Below, piece by piece: positions 21,552 through 63,714 of a stretch of DNA of 64,000 nucleotides (within the stretch, counting starts at the first letter, position 1; each line of letters opens with the position of its first letter). The position numbers and the translations under genes were made by a program. Under the pieces are notes generated by a model that saw only the letters and a program-made list of their open reading frames with translations, ran no database searches and was not told where the DNA came from. This DNA comes from a phage: assembly GCA_016389475.1 (NCBI GenBank), contig GCA_016389475.1_3042.1. One strand, written 5' to 3'.

Positions 21552-21913
21552 TACAAACTCTCGGTGAATGTACGAGCGATAACGTCGCGCTGCTGTTCCG
21601 GAGTCAGAGAGTTAAAGCGAACTGCATAACCTGATACACGGATGGTCAGCTGCGGATATTTTTCCGGATGCTTAACTGCATCTTCCAGAGTTTCACGACG
21701 CAGAACGTTAACGTTCAGGTGTTGACCACCTTCAATTTTAACTGCAGGCTGTTGCTCAATTTCAATTTCACGGGCATGCAAACCATAGAAAATTTCTGGG
21801 TCTACAAAAGAGTCCTCTTTAAAGGTTTTAGAAACGATAATTCGTGCTTGAATACCATCTTCAAAATAAATAGTACCTTTGTGTATGCCTTCAAGAATTT
21901 GATATGCTTTCAT
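21551..21913 (-). CDS. autonomous glycyl radical cofactor (GrcA/YfiD-like)
   Basis: 120 aa. C-terminal ...[59 protein letters not shown] is near-identical to E. coli GrcA as I recall it, with the RVSGY glycyl-radical motif. T4 carries a homolog (Y06I). Confidence 0.85.
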
Positions 21914-29253: not shown

Positions 29254-29329
29254 TGGTCGAGGCAGTAGGGATCGAACCTACGACCCAGGACTTAGAAGGT
29301 CCTTGCTCTTCCTTCTGAGCTATGCCCCG
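29254..29329 (-). tRNA. tRNA-Arg (anticodon TCT), CCA encoded
   Basis: Manually folded cloverleaf: acceptor CGGGGCA/TGCCTCG, D-arm GCTC/GAGC, anticodon loop CTTCTAA, T-loop TTCGATC. Confidence 0.8.
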
Positions 29330-29333
29330 TAAT

Positions 29334-29409
29334 TGGGGTGACCGATGGGAGTCGAACCCATGACTACGAGAATCACAATCTCGAGTTCTACCAACTGAAC
29401 TACGGCCAC
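29334..29409 (-). tRNA. tRNA-His (anticodon GTG), CCA encoded
   Basis: Acceptor GTGGCCG/CGGTCAC, anticodon stem CGAGA/TCTCG, loop TTGTGAT, T-loop TTCGACT, discriminator C. Confidence 0.7.
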
Positions 29410-29523
29410 ATTAATACCTACTCCAACAATCATGATGTCTTCACACGAAATTAAGAGAAGAGTGATCAGTTCAACCCCTATAATCGCGTCAAGTAGATAT
29501 TAATGTGACAGTTGTCACAAATT

Positions 29524-29598
29524 TGGCGGACGTGATAGGATTCGAACCTATAACCAATCGCTTAACAGGCGATCGCTCTGCCATTGAGCTACACATCC
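29524..29598 (-). tRNA. tRNA-Asn (anticodon GTT), CCA encoded
   Basis: Acceptor GGATGTG/CACGTCC, anticodon stem ATCGC/GCGAT, loop CTGTTAA, T-loop TTCGAAT. Confidence 0.7.
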
Positions 29599-29602
29599 AA
29601 AT

Positions 29603-29689
29603 TGGTGGGGAGTGATGGAGTCGAACCACCCGAGTCGCAATGACAATGAATTTACAGTCCACACCGCTACCTCTACGGGATAACTCCCC
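29603..29689 (-). tRNA. tRNA-Tyr (anticodon GTA), long variable arm, CCA encoded
   Basis: Acceptor GGGGAGT/ACTCCCC, anticodon loop CTGTAAA, about 15-nt variable arm, T-loop TTCGACT. Confidence 0.65.
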
Positions 29690-29701
29690 TAATTCATAAT
29701 T

Positions 29702-29776
29702 TGGTGGCCCTGGGTGGAATTGAACCACCATCTGGCGATTATGAGTCGCTTGCTTGAACCTTCCAGCTACAGGGCC
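29702..29776 (-). tRNA. tRNA with CAT anticodon (Ile-lysidine type as in T4, or Met)
   Basis: Acceptor GGCCCTG/CAGGGCC, anticodon loop CTCATAA, T-loop TTCAATT. Confidence 0.7.
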
Positions 29777-29777
29777 T

Positions 29778-29853
29778 TGGTGCTGATTGACGGAATCGAA
29801 CCGCCGACATCCTCATTACAAGTGAGGTGCTCTACCTACTGAGCTAAATCAGC
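29778..29853 (-). tRNA. tRNA-Thr (anticodon TGT)
   Basis: Acceptor GCTGATT/AATCAGC, anticodon stem CCTCA/TGAGG, loop CTTGTAA, T-loop TTCGATT. Confidence 0.8.
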
Positions 29854-29858
29854 AAAAC

Positions 29859-29948
29859 TGGCGGAGGCGATAGGATTCGAACCTATGAGTCGCCGGAGCG
29901 ACTGCCGGTTTTCAAGACCGGTGCATTCAACCACTCTGCCACGCCTCC
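29859..29948 (-). tRNA. tRNA-Ser (anticodon TGA), long variable arm
   Basis: Acceptor GGAGGCG/CGCCTCC, anticodon stem CCGGT/ACCGG, loop CTTGAAA, T-loop TTCGAAT. Confidence 0.8.
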
Positions 29949-29950
29949 AG

Positions 29951-30024
29951 TCTCCATACAAGGATTTGAACCTTGGACCTCCTGATCCCAAATCAGGCGC
30001 TCTACCAAACTGAGCTACACGGAG
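29951..30024 (-). tRNA. tRNA-Pro (anticodon TGG), no encoded CCA
   Basis: Anticodon stem CCTGA/TCAGG, loop TTTGGGA, T-loop TTCAAAT. Only 2 nt separate it from tRNA-Ser (Pro-Ser dimer arrangement known from T4). Confidence 0.8.
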
Positions 30025-30034
30025 TAAATTAAAT

Positions 30035-30108
<74 letters not shown>

Positions 30109-30113
30109 AAATT

Positions 30114-30200
30114 TGGTGCGAGAAGTGGGACTCGAACCCACAAGGAAATCATTCCGCAGCATTTTAAGTGCTGTGCCTTTACCAATTTGACCATTCTCGC
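30114..30200 (-). tRNA. tRNA-Leu (anticodon TAA), long variable arm, CCA encoded
   Basis: Acceptor GCGAGAA/TTCTCGC, anticodon stem CAGCA/TGCTG, loop CTTAAAA. Confidence 0.8.
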
Positions 30201-30201
30201 G

Positions 30202-30274
30202 CTGGGAATAAAGGATTCGAACCTTTGCATCCTGGAATCAAAATCCAGTGCCTTACCAACTTGGCTAATTCCCA
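30202..30274 (-). tRNA. tRNA-Gln (anticodon TTG), no encoded CCA
   Basis: Acceptor TGGGAAT/ATTCCCA, anticodon stem CTGGA/TCCAG, loop TTTTGAT. 1 nt from tRNA-Leu (Gln-Leu dimer arrangement known from T4). Confidence 0.8.
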
Positions 30275-35084: not shown

Positions 35085-35675
35085 ATGCTCTTTACATTTT
35101 TTGATCCGATTGAATATGCGGCCAAAACGGTGAATAAAAACGCGCCGACTATTCCTATGACAGATATTTTTAGAAACTATAAAGACTATTTCAAACGTGC
35201 TCTTGCGGGATACCGCTTACGTACTTATTATATTAAAGGTTCACCACGCCCGGAAGAATTAGCAAATACTATATATGGAAATCCACAGTTGTATTGGGTT
35301 TTATTGATGTGTAATGATAATTATGATCCATATTATGGATGGATTACTTCACAAGAAGCTGCTTATCAAGCATCTATACAAAAATACAAAAACGTAGGTG
35401 GAGACCAAATAGTATATCATGTAAATGAGAACGGTGAAAAATTTTATAATTTAGTATCATACGATGATAATCCATATGTTTGGTATGACAAAGGTGATAA
35501 AGCTAGAAAATATCCTCAATATGAAGGAGCACTTGCTGCTGTTAATACGTATGAAGCTGCTGTTCTTGAAAATGAAAAACTTCGTCAAATAAAAATAATA
35601 GCAAAATCAGACATCAATTCATTTATGAACGACCTTATACGTATAATGGAGAAATCTTATGGAAATGATAAGTAA
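35085..35675 (+). CDS. 53: baseplate wedge protein gp53
   Basis: 196 aa; first gene of the plus-strand late block; AGGAGG SD. Confidence 0.85.
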   Translation: MLFTFFDPIEYAAKTVNKNAPTIPMTDIFRNYKDYFKRALAGYRLRTYYIKGSPRPEELANTIYGNPQLYWVLLMCNDNYDPYYGWITSQEAAYQASIQKYKNVGGDQIVYHVNENGEKFYNLVSYDDNPYVWYDKGDKARKYPQYEGALAAVNTYEAAVLENEKLRQIKIIAKSDINSFMNDLIRIMEKSYGNDK

Positions 35676-37386
35676 TAACCTTAATTGGTTTGTTGGTGTT
35701 GTTGAAGATAGAATGGACCCATTAAAATTAGGTCGTGTTCGTGTTCGTGTGGTTGGTCTGCATCCACCACAAAGAGCACAAGGTGATGTAATGGGTATTC
35801 CAACTGAAAAATTGCCATGGATGTCAGTTATTCAGCCTATAACTTCGGCAGCTATGTCTGGAATTGGAGGTTCCGTTACCGGACCGGTAGAAGGAACTAG
35901 AGTTTATGGTCATTTTTTGGACAAATGGAAAACTAACGGAATTGTTCTTGGCACGTATGGTGGAATAGTTCGCGAAAAACCGAATAGACTTGAAGGATTT
36001 TCTGACCCGACTGGGCAATATCCTAGACGTTTAGGAAATGATACTAACGTACTAAACCAAGGCGGAGAAGTAGGATATGATTCGTCTTCTAACGTTATCC
36101 AAGATAGTAACTTAGACACCGCAATAAATCCCGATGATAGACCACTATCAGAGATTCCAACTGATGATAATCCAAATATGTCAATGGCTGAAATGCTTCG
36201 CCGCGATGAAGGATTAAGACTAAAAGTTTATTGGGATACCGAAGGATATCCGACAATTGGTATTGGTCATCTTATCATGAAGCAGCCAGTTCGTGATATG
36301 GCTCAAATTAATAAAGTTTTATCGAAACAAGTTGGTCGTGAAATTACTGGAAACCCAGGTTCTATTACAATGGAAGAAGCGACGACTTTATTTGAGCGTG
36401 ATTTGGCTGATATGCAACGTGATATTAAATCACATTCTAAAGTAGGACCAGTCTGGCAAGCTGTCAACCGTTCTCGTCAAATGGCGTTAGAAAATATGGC
36501 ATTTCAGATGGGTGTTGGCGGTGTAGCTAAATTTAACACAATGTTAACTGCTATGTTAGCAGGAGATTGGGAAAAAGCATACAAAGCCGGTCGTGATTCA
36601 TTGTGGTATCAACAAACAAAAGGCCGTGCATCCCGTGTTACCATGATTATTCTTACGGGGAATTTGGAATCATATGGTGTTGAAGTGAAAACTCCAGCTA
36701 GGTCTTTATCGGCAATGGCTGCGACTGTAGCTAAATCTTCTGACCCTGCTGACCCTCCTATTCCGAATGATTCAAGAATTTTATTTAAAGAACCTGTTTC
36801 TTCATATAAAGGCGAATATCCTTATGTGCATACAATGGAAACTGAAAGTGGACATATTCAGGAATTTGATGATACCCCTGGGCAAGAACGATATAGATTA
36901 GTTCATCCAACTGGAACTTATGAAGAAGTATCACCGTCAGGGAGAAGAACAAGAAAAACTGTTGATAATTTATATGATATAACCAACGCTGATGGTAATT
37001 TTTTGGTAGCCGGCGATAAAAAGACTAACGTCGGTGGATCAGAAATTTATTACAACATGGATAATCGTCTTCACCAAATAGATGGAAGCAATACAATATT
37101 TGTACGTGGCGATGAAACTAAGACGGTTGAAGGTAATGGAACTATCCTAGTTAAAGGTAATGTTACTATTGTAGTTGAAGGTAATGCTGACATTACAGTT
37201 AAAGGAGATGCTACCACTTTAGTTGAAGGAAATCAGACTAATACAGTAAATGGAAATCTTTCTTGGAAAGTTGCTGGGACAGTTGATTGGGACGTTGGTG
37301 GTGATTGGACAGAAAAAATGGCATCTATGAGTTCTATTTCATCTGGTCAATACACAATTGATGGATCGAGGATTGACATTGGCTAA
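35659..37386 (+). CDS. 5: baseplate hub and tail lysozyme gp5
   Basis: 575 aa; internal lysozyme domain closely resembling gene e (EMLRRDEGLRLKVYWDTEGYPTIGIGHL); C-terminal beta-helix repeats (VEGNGTILVKGNVTIVVEGNADITVKGD). Confidence 0.95.
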   Translation: MEMISNNLNWFVGVVEDRMDPLKLGRVRVRVVGLHPPQRAQGDVMGIPTEKLPWMSVIQPITSAAMSGIGGSVTGPVEGTRVYGHFLDKWKTNGIVLGTYGGIVREKPNRLEGFSDPTGQYPRRLGNDTNVLNQGGEVGYDSSSNVIQDSNLDTAINPDDRPLSEIPTDDNPNMSMAEMLRRDEGLRLKVYWDTEGYPTIGIGHLIMKQPVRDMAQINKVLSKQVGREITGNPGSITMEEATTLFERDLADMQRDIKSHSKVGPVWQAVNRSRQMALENMAFQMGVGGVAKFNTMLTAMLAGDWEKAYKAGRDSLWYQQTKGRASRVTMIILTGNLESYGVEVKTPARSLSAMAATVAKSSDPADPPIPNDSRILFKEPVSSYKGEYPYVHTMETESGHIQEFDDTPGQERYRLVHPTGTYEEVSPSGRRTRKTVDNLYDITNADGNFLVAGDKKTNVGGSEIYYNMDNRLHQIDGSNTIFVRGDETKTVEGNGTILVKGNVTIVVEGNADITVKGDATTLVEGNQTNTVNGNLSWKVAGTVDWDVGGDWTEKMASMSSISSGQYTIDGSRIDIG

Positions 37387-43200: not shown

Positions 43201-43295
43201 CGCAATTTAGAGATTTAGTTAATAAACGTCTAAAAGATAATATAGGAAATCCAAGAGACCCTGAAAATCCAACACAGGTTAAAATAGATGAATGA
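40197..43295 (+). CDS. 7: baseplate wedge protein gp7
   Basis: 1032 aa as in T4; ATGA overlap with gene 6. Confidence 0.9.
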   Translation: MTVKAPSVTSLRISKLSANQVQVRWDDVGANFYYFVEIAETKSNSGKNLPSNQYRWINLGYTANNSFFFDDADPLTSYVIRVATAAQDFEQSDWIYTEEFETFATNAYTFQNMIEMQLANKFIQEKFTLNNSDYVNFNNDTIMAALMNESFQFSPSYADVSSISNFIIGENEYHEIQGSIQQVCKDINRVYLMESEGILYLFERYQPVVKVSNDKGQTWKAVKLFNDRVGYPLSKTVYYQSANTTYVLGYDKIFYGRKSTDVRWSADDVRFSSQDITFAKLGDQLHLGFDVEIFATYATLPANVYRIAEAITCTDDYIYVVARDKVRYIKTSNAPIDSDPLSPTYSERLFEPDTMTITGNPKAVCYKMDSIGDKVFALIIGEVETLNANPRTSKIIDSADKGIYVLNHDEKTWKRVFGNTEEERRRIQPGYANMSTDGKLVSLSSSNFKFLSDNIVNDLETAAKYQLIGAVKYEFPREWLADKHYHMMAFIADEKSDWETFTPQPMKYYAEPFFNWSKKSNTRCWINNSDKAVVVYADLKYTKVIENIPETSPDRLVHEYWDDGDCTIVMPNVKFTGFKKYASGMLFYKSSGEIISYYDFNYRVRDTVEIIWKPTEVFLKAFLQNQERETPWSPEEERGLADPDLRPLIGTMMPDSYLLQDSNFEAFCEAYIQYLSDGYGTQYNNLRNLIRNQYPREEHAWEYLWSEIYKRNIYLNADKRDAVARFFESRSYDFYSTKGIEASYKFLFKVLYNEEVEIEIESGAGTEYDVIIQSDSLTEDLVGQTIYTATGRCNVTYIERSYSNGKLQWTVTIHNLLGRLIAGQEVKAERLPGFEGEIIRGVKGKDLLQNNIDYINRSRSYYVMKIKSNLPSSRWKSDVIRFVHPVGFGFIAITLLTMFINVGLTLKHTETIINKYKNYKWDSGLPTEYADRVAKLTPTGEIEHDSVTGEAIYEPGPMAGVEYPLPDDYNAENNNSIFQGQLPSERRKLMSPLFDASGTTFAQFRDLVNKRLKDNIGNPRDPENPTQVKIDE

Positions 43296-44292
43296 TTCAA
43301 GTGTTATCTATCGTGCGATAGTTACTTCAAAATTTAGAACAGAAAAAATGTTGAATTTTTATAATTCAATTGGAAGTGGTCCGGATAAAAACACTATCTT
43401 TATCACATTTGGAAGATCAGAACCGTGGTCATCAAATGAAAATGAGGTGGGCTTTGCCCCACCTTATCCTACCGATTCTGTATTAGGTGTAACTGACATG
43501 TGGACTCATATGATGGGAACAGTAAAAGTTCTTCCATCAATGCTTGATGCAGTTATTCCTCGTCGAGATTGGGGAGATACTAGATATCCGGATCCATACA
43601 CATTTAGAATTAACGATATTGTAGTGTGTAACTCAGCTCCTTACAACGCTACTGAATCAGGCGCGGGATGGTTAGTGTATCGCTGTTTAGATGTTCCTGA
43701 TACTGGAATGTGCTCAATAGCATCTTTAACTAATAAGGATGAATGCCTTAAGTTAGGTGGAAAATGGACTCCTTCTGCTAGGTCAATGACTCCTCCTGAA
43801 GGTCGAGGAGATGCTGAAGGAACAATTGAACCTGGGGATGGATATGTTTGGGAATATTTATTTGAGATTCCGCCTGATGTATCTATAAATAGATGTACGA
43901 ATGAATACATCGTGGTTCCTTGGCCTGAGGAATTAAAAGAAGACCCGACTAGATGGGGGTATGAAGATAATCTCACTTGGCAACAAGATGATTTTGGATT
44001 AATTTACCGTGTTAAGGCAAATACTATCCGTTTTAAAGCATATTTAGATTCAGTTTATTTTCCTGAAGCTGCATTGCCGGGAAATAAAGGATTTAGACAA
44101 ATATCAATAATTACGAATCCTCTTGAAGCTAAAGCTCATCCAAATGACCCAAATGTTAAAGCTGAAAAGGATTATTATGATCCGGAAGATTTAATGAGGC
44201 ATTCGGGCGAAATGATTTATATGGAAAATAGGCCACCTATTATTATGGCAATGGATCAGACAGAAGAAATCAATATTCTGTTTACATTTTAA
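43288..44292 (+). CDS. 8: baseplate wedge protein gp8
   Basis: 334 aa as in T4. Confidence 0.9.
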   Translation: MNDSSVIYRAIVTSKFRTEKMLNFYNSIGSGPDKNTIFITFGRSEPWSSNENEVGFAPPYPTDSVLGVTDMWTHMMGTVKVLPSMLDAVIPRRDWGDTRYPDPYTFRINDIVVCNSAPYNATESGAGWLVYRCLDVPDTGMCSIASLTNKDECLKLGGKWTPSARSMTPPEGRGDAEGTIEPGDGYVWEYLFEIPPDVSINRCTNEYIVVPWPEELKEDPTRWGYEDNLTWQQDDFGLIYRVKANTIRFKAYLDSVYFPEAALPGNKGFRQISIITNPLEAKAHPNDPNVKAEKDYYDPEDLMRHSGEMIYMENRPPIIMAMDQTEEINILFTF

Positions 44293-59889: not shown

Positions 59890-60125
59890 TGGAAGGTTTA
59901 ATTGAAGCTATTAAATCAAACGACCTCGTAGCCGCTCGTAAATTATTTGCTGAAGCCATGGCTGCAAGAACGACTGATTTAATCAAAGAAGAAAAAATCA
60001 CTATCGCTCGTAATTTCTTAATCGAGGGTGAAGAACCTGATGACGAGGATGACGACGAAGATAGCGATGATGATAAAGACGACAAAAAAGACAAAGACTC
60101 TGATGAAGACGAGGATGATGAATAA
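59889..60125 (+). CDS. 67: prohead core protein gp67
   Basis: 78 aa with poly-acidic C-terminal tail ([31 protein letters not shown]). Confidence 0.85.
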
Positions 60126-61218: not shown

Positions 61219-62028
61219 ATGCTTAAAGAACAACTGATTGCCGAAGCGCAGAAAATTGATGCTTCCGTTGCTCTTGATAGTATTTTCGAATCAGTTAATA
61301 TTTCTCCGGAAGCAAAAGAAACTTTCGGCACTGTATTCGAAGCTACCGTCAAGCAGCACGCCGTTAAATTAGCTGAATCTCATATCGCTAAAATTGCTGA
61401 AAAAGCAGAAGAAGAAGTAGAAAAAAATAAAGAAGAAGCAGAAGAAAAAGCTGAGAAGAAAATCGCTGAGCAAGCTTCTAAATTCCTTGACCATCTTGCA
61501 AAAGAATGGCTCACTGAAAATAAATTAGCAGTAGATAAAGGCATCAAAGCCGAACTGTTTGAATCCATGCTTGGTGGATTGAAAGAGCTCTTCGTTGAAC
61601 ACAACGTTGTTGTTCCAGAAGAATCAGTTGATGTTGTAGCTGAAATGGAAGAAGAACTGCAAGAACACAAAGAAGAATCAGCTCGTCTGTTCGAAGAACT
61701 CAATAAGCGTGACGCATATATCAATTATGTGCAGCGTGAAGTGGCATTGAGCGAAAGTACTAAAGATCTGACTGAGTCTCAAAAAGAAAAAGTCTCTGCT
61801 CTGGTCGAAGGTATTGATTATTCAGATGCATTCTCAAGCAAATTGAGTGCCATCGTAGAAATGGTGAAGAAATCTAATAAAGATGAAAGCACTATTACTG
61901 AGAGTATAAATACTCCTGATACTGAAGCAGCCGGACTGAATTTCGTCACTGAAGCTGTAGAAGATAAATCTGCGCAAGGTGCAGAAGATATTGTAAGTGT
62001 ATATGCGAAAGTCGCATCTCGTTTCTAA
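61219..62028 (+). CDS. 22: prohead scaffold core protein gp22
   Basis: 269 aa, highly acidic coiled-coil, as in T4. Confidence 0.9.
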   Translation: MLKEQLIAEAQKIDASVALDSIFESVNISPEAKETFGTVFEATVKQHAVKLAESHIAKIAEKAEEEVEKNKEEAEEKAEKKIAEQASKFLDHLAKEWLTENKLAVDKGIKAELFESMLGGLKELFVEHNVVVPEESVDVVAEMEEELQEHKEESARLFEELNKRDAYINYVQREVALSESTKDLTESQKEKVSALVEGIDYSDAFSSKLSAIVEMVKKSNKDESTITESINTPDTEAAGLNFVTEAVEDKSAQGAEDIVSVYAKVASRF

Positions 62029-62046: not shown

Positions 62047-63666
62047 ATGACTATCAAAACTAAAGCTGAACTTTTGAACAAATGGAAGCCATTACTGGAA
62101 GGTGAAGGTTTACCGGAAATTGCTAATAGCAAACAAGCGATTATCGCTAAAATCTTTGAAAACCAGGAAAAAGATTTCCAGACAGCTCCGGAATATAAAG
62201 ACGAAAAAATTGCTCAGGCATTCGGTTCTTTCTTAACAGAAGCTGAAATCGGTGGTGACCACGGTTACAATGCTACCAACATCGCTGCAGGTCAGACTTC
62301 TGGCGCAGTAACTCAGATTGGCCCAGCTGTTATGGGTATGGTACGTCGTGCTATTCCTAACCTGATTGCTTTCGATATTTGTGGTGTTCAGCCAATGAAC
62401 AGCCCGACTGGCCAGGTATTCGCGCTGCGCGCAGTATATGGTAAAGATCCAATCGCTTCCGGCGCTAAAGAAGCATTCCACCCAATGTATGGTCCAGATG
62501 CAATGTTCTCTGGTCAGGGTGCTGCTAAGAAATTCGCTGCTTTGAAAGCAAGTGATACTCTTGAAGTCGGAACTATTTACACTCACTTCTTCCAGGACAC
62601 TGGTACTGTGTATCTGCAAGCTACAGCAGCTAAACAAATTGATTCAGGCGCATCTGACGCAGACAAATTAGATGCTGAAATTAAGAAACAAATTGATTCA
62701 GGCGCATCTGACGCAGACAAATTAGATGCTGAAATTAAGAAACAAATGGAAGCTGGTGTACTGGTAGAAATCGCTGAAGGTATGGCTACTTCTATCGCTG
62801 AACTTCAAGAAGGTTTTAACGGTTCTACCGATAACCCGTGGAATGAAATGGGCTTCCGTATCGATAAACAAGTTATCGAAGCTAAATCTCGTCAGCTGAA
62901 AGCTGCTTACTCTATTGAATTAGCACAAGACCTCCGCGCTGTTCATGGTATGGATGCTGATGCTGAACTGTCTGGTATTCTGGCTACCGAAATTATGCTG
63001 GAAATCAACCGTGAAGTTGTTGATTGGATTAACTACTCAGCACAGGTTGGTAAATCTGGTATGACCCTGACTCCGGGTTCTAAAGCTGGTGTATTTGACT
63101 TCCAGGACCCAATCGATATTCGTGGTGCTCGCTGGGCTGGTGAATCCTTTAAAGCTCTGTTGTTCCAGATTGACAAAGAAGCAGTTGAAATTGCTCGTCA
63201 GACCGGTCGTGGTGAAGGTAACTTCATTATCGCTTCCCGTAACGTAGTTAACGTTCTGGCTTCAGTTGATACCGGCATTTCTTATGCTGCACAGGGTCTG
63301 GCAACTGGCTTTAACACTGATACTACCAAGTCAGTATTTGCCGGTGTTCTGGGTGGTAAATACCGTGTATATATCGACCAGTATGCTAAACAGGATTATT
63401 TCACTGTAGGTTATAAAGGTCCGAACGAAATGGATGCTGGTATTTACTACGCTCCATATGTAGCTCTGACTCCACTGCGTGGTTCTGATCCGAAGAACTT
63501 CCAACCGGTAATGGGGTTCAAAACTCGTTACGGTATCGGTATCAACCCATTTGCAGAATCCGCTGCTCAGGCTCCGGCTTCTCGCATTCAGAGTGGTATG
63601 CCTTCTATCCTGAACAGCCTTGGTAAGAACGCTTACTTCCGCCGTGTATATGTTAAAGGTATCTAA
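62047..63666 (+). CDS. 23: major capsid protein gp23, carrying an 18-aa in-frame tandem duplication
   Basis: 539 aa; T4 gp23 is 521 aa as I recall it. The extra 18 residues equal a perfect 54-bp tandem repeat at 62635..62742 (QIDSGASDADKLDAEIKK twice). Confidence 0.95.
   Translation: MTIKTKAELLNKWKPLLEGEGLPEIANSKQAIIAKIFENQEKDFQTAPEYKDEKIAQAFGSFLTEAEIGGDHGYNATNIAAGQTSGAVTQIGPAVMGMVRRAIPNLIAFDICGVQPMNSPTGQVFALRAVYGKDPIASGAKEAFHPMYGPDAMFSGQGAAKKFAALKASDTLEVGTIYTHFFQDTGTVYLQATAAKQIDSGASDADKLDAEIKKQIDSGASDADKLDAEIKKQMEAGVLVEIAEGMATSIAELQEGFNGSTDNPWNEMGFRIDKQVIEAKSRQLKAAYSIELAQDLRAVHGMDADAELSGILATEIMLEINREVVDWINYSAQVGKSGMTLTPGSKAGVFDFQDPIDIRGARWAGESFKALLFQIDKEAVEIARQTGRGEGNFIIASRNVVNVLASVDTGISYAAQGLATGFNTDTTKSVFAGVLGGKYRVYIDQYAKQDYFTVGYKGPNEMDAGIYYAPYVALTPLRGSDPKNFQPVMGFKTRYGIGINPFAESAAQAPASRIQSGMPSILNSLGKNAYFRRVYVKGI
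62635..62742 (+). repeat. perfect 54-bp direct tandem duplication (2 copies) inside gene 23
   Basis: 62635..62688 and 62689..62742 are identical (caaattgattcaggcgcatctgacgcagacaaattagatgctgaaattaagaaa). Confidence 0.95.
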
Positions 63667-63681
63667 TCTTTGACGATTTAA

Positions 63682-63703
63682 GGGACCTTCGGGTCCCTTT
63701 AGT
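63682..63703 (+). terminator. rho-independent terminator after gene 23
   Basis: GGGACC-ttcg-GGTCCC hairpin followed by a T-rich run. Confidence 0.7.
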
Positions 63704-63714
63704 TGTTTTTATGG

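Follow-up and report, generated by a model that had tools for sequence, protein, structure and literature searches.

A perfect 54-bp in-frame tandem duplication in the major capsid gene 23 of a T4-like phage is probably a recent and tolerated slippage product

The analysed stretch of DNA (64,000 nucleotides; hereafter the window) is a segment of a Tequatrovirus (T4-like) genome. Gene 23 (62047..63666, + strand), encoding the major capsid protein, was assigned on the basis of the list of open reading frames (ORFs), phmmer, the Pfam family PF07068 and gene order, and its product comprises 539 aa including the duplication described below. The head genes are arranged in the order 20-67-68-21-22-23-24, and the ORFs of the window are collinear with those of the annotated phages Sa45lw, SfPhi01 and T4. 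The Pfam profile PF07068 (Gp23) gave a score of 404 bits (cut-off 24.4), and a phmmer search against PDB matched residues 1-539 to residues 1-521 of T4 gp23 with E=0. The alignment with T4 gp23 (521 aa; 6UZC/7VS5, PDB sequence 6uzc_a) runs from end to end and contains one 18-residue gap, in agreement with the first-pass annotation of this DNA, which had set a gene 23 product of 539 aa against 521 aa in T4.

The window gp23 is thus a full-length homologue of T4 gp23 (PF07068; PDB 5VF3, 7VS5, 6UZC), with 92% identity, gaps included (Foldseek). The first 134 residues of the two proteins are identical, including the prohead-protease cleavage site before residue 66. The mature T4 chains deposited in PDB align from residue 66 of the window protein, and removal of its propeptide by the gp21 protease is predicted. 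A structural model of the 539-aa protein (mean pLDDT 64.7) matched T4 gp23 chains in Foldseek with E ~1e-59 and TM values of 0.65-0.8, and the modelled fold is HK97-like with an inserted I domain. Gene neighbourhood and HK97 fold with I domain are therefore common to both proteins, while the I-domain loop of the window gp23 (539 aa, compared to 521 aa in T4) is longer by 18 residues.

In the phage collection, the best match to the window over 25 kb was Shigella phage SfPhi01 (98.7%), and no record identical to the window was found there. The best match to gene 23 was Escherichia phage vB_EcoM-Sa45lw. An identical 539-aa protein has been deposited as MBI9930166.1 ('phage capsid protein [Escherichia coli]'), located on one 165,853-bp contig. 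The window is therefore part of a phage contig that is near-complete and belongs to an E. coli whole-genome assembly, i.e. a nearly complete lytic T4-like genome resides in a bacterial WGS assembly. The protein clusters of MBI9930166.1 also contain gp23 fragments under the labels Enterococcus faecalis, Bacillus cereus and Salmonella, suggestive of a carry-over of T4-like DNA into unrelated assemblies. In the phages reached via look-ups of gp22 and gp8, gp23 has 521 aa wherever a gene was called.

Analysis with Tandem Repeats Finder revealed a perfect array at 62632..62747 (period 54, 2.1 copies, 100% matches, 0 indels, score 232); no other tandem repeat in the 64-kb window is perfect. A script comparison showed that 62635-62688 and 62689-62742 are the same letter for letter. 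These two copies of a 54-bp unit, both on the + strand, are placed head to tail without a spacer and in frame within the 539-aa ORF (62047..63666, +); copy 1 (62635..62688) covers codons 197-214 and copy 2 (62689..62742) codons 215-232. The added peptide is QIDSGASDADKLDAEIKK, present at residues 197-214 and again at 215-232. The perfect in-frame 54-bp duplication that the first-pass annotation had reported at 62635-62742 was hence recovered by both procedures. The expectation for a perfect 54-nt repeat arising by chance is ~4^-54 per position, so that chance is no explanation.

The self-match at offset 54, which starts at 62632, is 62 nt long and not 54 nt, because the 8-bp sequence AAACAAAT occurs three times in the window, at 62632, 62686 and 62740, each time on the + strand. 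The first occurrence (62632..62639) forms the left endpoint of the array, the second (62686..62693) lies at the novel junction between the copies, and the third (62740..62747) follows copy 2 as the right endpoint, where it encodes the codons KQM of the native KQMEAG; the direct repeat was located at gene nt 586, with a spacing of 54 and a length of 8. Owing to this flanking 8-bp repeat the edges of the unit are ambiguous within 8 nt, and the true repeated stretch is 62 nt. The junction sequence between the two copies is GAAATTAAGAAACAAATTGATTC, while the single-copy path runs from the left flank into ...AAGAAACAAATGGAAGC.

The ancestral state of the locus can be read from close relatives. In the single-copy genes of Sa45lw, ESh24 and SfPhi01, AAACAAAT is present twice, exactly 54 bp apart, at the endpoints of the later duplication, with the first occurrence at the same position as in the window. 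When one copy of the unit was deleted, gene 23 differed from that of Sa45lw by 1 synonymous base, and the protein did not differ from the gp23 of Sa45lw and ESh24. These values point to a very recent event on a common allele. The first-pass annotation had named a very recent event as one reading of the identical copies, and comparison with related gp23 proteins, which have one copy fewer, supports it.

Short direct repeats at the endpoints are the classic anatomy of slippage or illegitimate recombination. At a randomly placed 54-bp duplication, we estimate the probability of at least 8 extra matching bases at ~1e-4. The location of the endpoints on the 8-bp repeat would accordingly be a signature of slippage or illegitimate recombination and not of a contig-end overlap. 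The repeat resembles a microhomology-mediated tandem duplication, with head-to-tail copies lacking a spacer, an endpoint repeat already present in the unduplicated relative and one repeat retained at the junction; there is nothing unusual in this anatomy. As judged from it, a nascent strand or a broken end may have re-paired between the two AAACAAAT copies during replication or recombination. The ancestral copies, 54 bp apart and encoding K196-Q197 and K214-Q215, would in this way have delimited the interval that was copied twice.

The presence of such repeats is not a peculiarity of this site. Gene 23 contains 6 direct repeats of at least 8 bp within 150 bp of each other, compared to 6.6 expected from codon-shuffled controls, and as a substrate for mutation the site is thus unremarkable; the remarkable point is that an in-frame product can survive here. 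No significant DNA hairpin that could promote slippage was detected at the duplication (z = -1.2 and -0.35). With a probability of about 0.8, we regard the locus as a true tandem duplication of very recent date, in frame within gene 23 of this T4-like phage (Tequatrovirus) and a tolerated product of slippage.

The first-pass annotation had also raised the possibility of an assembly artefact. According to this explanation, the true copy number is one, and the second copy was left by the handling of the assembly or the record, either as a k-mer overlap at the ends of a circularly permuted contig or as a mis-join. The complete identity of the copies, with zero divergence, would be expected in such a case. 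Moreover, k=55 is a common assembler setting, the period of 54 equals k-1 (55-1), an overlap that some de Bruijn assemblers leave behind, and T4-like genomes assemble as circles. However, the match runs over 62 nt with its endpoints on a pre-existing 8-bp repeat, which an overlap does not predict (~1e-4 by chance). Furthermore, an end-overlap artefact requires a position at a contig end or at an origin rotated by hand, whereas the duplicate lies within continuous sequence, 62.6 kb and 1.26 kb from the ends of the window; the contig comes from a WGS assembly labelled E. coli, and contigs of this kind are seldom rotated manually. To be assembled at all, the novel junction requires k-mers in the reads that span it. 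The duplication is also in frame and located in the one loop known to accept insertions. Over 25 kb the only other indels relative to the closest relative are +9 and -3 nt, without frameshifts, and the window contains no ambiguous bases. A bubble or allele chimera produced from a mixed sample was ruled out, since the copies are identical rather than allelic.

Searches for the junction in other data yielded a single public record. Among the collections scanned, the exact junction is present only in MBI9930166.1, and this uniqueness is compatible with an artefact. The exact 26-mer spanning the junction was absent from IMG/VR. A 23-mer with two degenerate positions gave six matches in the metagenome and GTDB genome collections, all of them AT-rich chance matches without gp23 similarity. 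No phage record carrying the junction in one piece was found among the matches listed. When IMG/VR was scanned for KLDAE codons recurring within 24-54 nt, 19 matches were retrieved, none of which was gp23-like. Taking both sides together with the independent occurrence of the same anatomy in the phages AV112 and AV113 (see below), we regard an artefact as unlikely, and the genuine tandem duplication remains the preferred reading.

The duplicated segment belongs to the insertion (I) domain of gp23, assigned to residues ~161-241 (approximately 62527..62769, +) from the published linker and domain description, the elements of the models and sequence variability. In T4, gp23* consists of an HK97 fold and a globular I domain of ~60 residues that follows linker 1 (aa 132-160); on the capsid surface this domain is visible as bumps, and it is supported by the neighbouring subunit (PMC9546572, PMC9958956). 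The I-domain loop is solvent-exposed and accepts insertions, and a T4-type head contains 930 copies of gp23 (PMC10229621). In the engineered 9DE-T4 capsid (Zhu et al. 2023, PDB 8GMO) the insert was placed between G201 and A202, and six inserts ring each hexamer (PMC10229621). Alignment with the PDB sequence places the 8GMO insert site (…IDxG/A…, at the slash) inside the unit duplicated here. The extra residues of the window gp23 thus map to the solvent-exposed I-domain loop, which answers, by reference to PMC10229621 and PDB 8GMO, the question of their structural location that the first-pass annotation had raised.

The 9DE-T4 capsid and the window gp23 share an insertion in the same exposed I-domain loop, and phage production was retained in 9DE-T4. 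The two inserts differ in nature: that of 9DE-T4 is artificial, CRISPR-made and composed of 9 residues, all acidic, while that of the window is natural, comprises 18 residues with a net charge of -2, and consists of the protein's own loop and most of the following helix. The possibility of an engineered display insertion of the 9DE-T4 type was rejected, as the insert is an exact copy of adjacent native sequence and only the site is common to both.

The variability of this region was assessed in an alignment of 116 homologous sequences with at least 68% identity to the first sequence, P0002. Variability among these homologs is by far the highest in the I domain, with a mean column entropy of 1.6-1.95 bits compared to 0.25-0.7 over most of the remaining mature protein. 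Within residues 186-231, the aligned C-terminal segment of the I domain to which this statement applies, natural indels were found only at 199-207, mostly at 199-204. The segment is 36-44 residues long in all of 118 sequences except two with 60 residues, namely the window gp23 and that of AV112.

Some other length variants were noted in the gp23 set. P0004 (Logan, 529 aa) carries +5 aa after gp23 residue 167 (numbering of the first sequence; I domain) and +3 aa near the C-terminus. P0008 and P0009 (ENA, 506 and 490 aa) have in-frame internal deletions, possibly gaps of metagenome assembly. The 705-aa members of the gp23 cluster, P0145 and P0146 (Logan), were rejected as duplications: P0145 is a GST-TEV-gp23* expression construct, and P0146 was discarded because of its identical length.

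AlphaFold models were obtained for the protein with two copies and with one copy of the unit, with moderate overall confidence (mean pLDDT 64.7 and 58.5). The single-copy model contains strands at 177-182 and 186-192, a loop, a helix at 205-217 and a strand at 221-223, with an I-domain pLDDT of 72-86. In the 539-aa model, strands 177-182 and 186-192 are found at the same positions, while the helix (223-235) and the last strand (239-241) are shifted by +18, and copy 1 is modelled as a low-confidence loop over residues 197-212. Its low pLDDT results partly from near-empty alignment columns and is weak evidence for disorder. According to these models, the core of the I domain would be kept and the extra copy extruded.

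The 18 residues, with their net charge of -2, would thus enter a flexible solvent-exposed loop, with the beta-hairpin and the helix keeping their native context. Most likely, the additional segment protrudes from the exterior of the capsid, once per gp23 subunit, and forms a ring around each hexamer. As gp23 is essential, only in-frame events at a tolerant site would be expected to persist, and the loop appears to be such a site; a duplication at this place would accordingly be tolerated and probably close to neutral. The viability of the phage carrying it we infer from the duplication being the consensus of an assembled contig.

A second duplication in this segment was found in Escherichia phage AV112, whose gp23 (540 aa) is among the top homologs and contains its own 18-residue tandem duplication, GATDAAKLDAEVKKQMEA x2. 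The AV112 unit is offset from that of the window by four residues towards the C-terminus. At the DNA level, the AV112 duplication (L020 2102..2220; OR352942.1) comprises two identical 54-bp copies, in frame and bounded by CTGGTGC repeats 54 bp apart. Two deposited genomes, those of AV112 and AV113 (OR352943.1), contain the AV112-type junction without interruption. Both are Mosigvirus phages isolated from wastewater on different hosts, whose host ranges were determined by plaque assays (PMC10844046). The duplication is not described in the searched text of the AV112/AV113 paper (PMC10844046), and no earlier account of tandem duplications in gene 23 was retrieved in our literature searches.

The gp23 of AV112/AV113 (540 aa) and that of the window thus have in common a perfect 54-bp in-frame duplication in the same loop-helix segment, associated with a short repeat 54 bp apart. 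However, AV112/AV113 belong to another genus and carry another gp23 allele (522-aa base), and their microhomology is CTGGTGC (7 bp), compared to AAACAAAT (8 bp) in the window. The two duplications are clearly separate events.

A comparable repeat is found in T4 itself. T4 gene 23 (NC_000866 104945-106510) contains the 8-bp repeat GCTGGTGC at nt 598-605 and 652-659, at the same 54-bp offset, and an AV112-type duplication could therefore arise in T4; the predicted unit between the GCTGGTGC repeats is GATDAAKLDAEIKKQMEA. The T4 repeat exists because the loop is preceded by a peptide (KQIDSGA; IDAGA in T4) similar to that following the helix (KQMEAGV; MEAGA in T4). Repeats of 7-8 bp at a 54-bp offset occur in three alleles, T4 included. 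Similar motifs 54 bp apart thus make the segment a predictable hot spot for duplications of this length across Tevenvirinae, situated in an essential and highly conserved capsid gene. The duplication in the window is a new length variant and not a new kind of feature, notable for the recurrence at one hot spot. Duplication variants are rare, accounting for 2/118 sequence clusters.

The AV112/AV113 pair also bears on a further explanation, namely that the duplication is confined to a sub-population or a defective variant whose path was followed by the assembler, the infectious phage being single-copy. Tandem repeats of ~50 bp would be expected to be readily gained and lost in the recombination-dependent replication of T4-type phages. 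In addition, the T4 loop is reported to tolerate 'up to 9' acidic residues, and the 18 residues added here are twice this engineered limit (PMC10229621). Since AV112 and AV113 form plaques, however, infectious virions can evidently be built with a duplication of 18 residues in this segment. Moreover, it is the contig consensus that carries the duplication, on a contig whose 165,853 bp is near the 166-170 kb of relatives, and a lethal mutation in an essential gene would not be expected to prevail among lytic phages. We therefore consider this explanation highly improbable, more so than an artefact. If the duplication is real, as we favour, nature tolerates in the I-domain loop an insertion twice the 9-residue maximum engineered in T4, which is of relevance to capsid engineering, where the loop serves as a display site with 930 copies per head.

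The first-pass annotation had proposed that the inserted charged segment could alter the surface properties of the capsid or the binding of decoration proteins. The first proposal is reasonable: the loop is exposed (PMC10229621), and the net charge of -2 per unit amounts to ~ -1,860 per head if all 930 subunits carry the duplication. The second found no support. Hoc contacts gp23 at Gly326-Arg344 near the hexamer axis (PMC10385173), and the published contact sites of Hoc and Soc exclude the I-domain loop. Direct disruption of decoration-protein binding would therefore not be expected, steric effects of an 18-residue loop aside.

Exposure at 930 copies per head is also in line with an adaptive reading, in which the duplication is real and has been selected, the larger loop being of help in charge, adhesion, antibody recognition or escape from CmdTAC sensing. 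The occurrence of two independent 18-residue duplications in the same loop-helix segment, in two genera, is consistent with selection; however, this recurrence is equally well explained by the mutational hot spot (7-8-bp repeats in three alleles), and the rarity of the variants (2/118 sequence clusters) argues against selection. As regards CmdTAC, the system is triggered by Gp23, for which no single-step escape mutants were obtained, suggesting that 'complex mutations' may be needed (PMC11618068). Yet a link between CmdTAC and the I-domain loop is pure speculation. Selection is accordingly an unlikely explanation.

It is similarly doubtful that the 54-bp-spaced motif pair KQIDSGA/KQMEAGV (IDAGA/MEAGA in T4) repeatedly expands the loop by 18 residues and that such expansions are retained as useful, for instance through an altered surface charge or adhesion, or through weaker recognition of Gp23 by capsid-sensing defences such as CmdTAC. 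If true, the T4-type capsid would possess in this loop a 'display site' that is natural and evolvable. The locus offers a testable case of whether length variants of the capsid surface affect stability, adhesion or the sensing of Gp23 by bacterial defences. Most likely, the event in the window is a real but ordinary slippage mutation, that is, a strain-level polymorphism and a new length variant of a very well known protein.

Several further features of the window were recorded. Gene 8 (43288..44292) contains at 44140..44148 a 9-bp unit, CCAAATGAC, followed by CCAAATG; the closest relative SfPhi01 lacks one unit, whereas the common form is that of 334 aa, and this is another small in-frame indel of the slippage type between close relatives. 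In gene 67, a 3-bp indel relative to SfPhi01 is located at 60069, in the Asp/Glu-rich acidic tail of gp67. The scaffold gene 22 carries an imperfect GAA-rich repeat at 61399..61460; the repeats of genes 67 and 22 both lie in low-complexity acidic coding sequence. An imperfect 24/48-bp tandem repeat is present at 37126..37257, near the 3' end of a 575-aa ORF (35659..37386), which, from its size and position, may be gene 5, the product of which has a C-terminal beta-helix of octapeptide repeats. Another imperfect tandem repeat (30 bp, 2 copies, 78% identity) was found at 21708..21768. The window also contains a cluster of 11 tRNA genes at 29254..30274 (-), for Arg, His, Asn, Tyr, Met-CAT, Thr, Ser, Pro, Gly, Leu and Gln, compared to 8 in T4. 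Finally, a GC-rich inverted repeat (gggaccttcgggtccc) followed by a T-run is located at 63676..63705, just after the stop codon of gene 23, and looks like a putative intrinsic terminator between genes 23 and 24.
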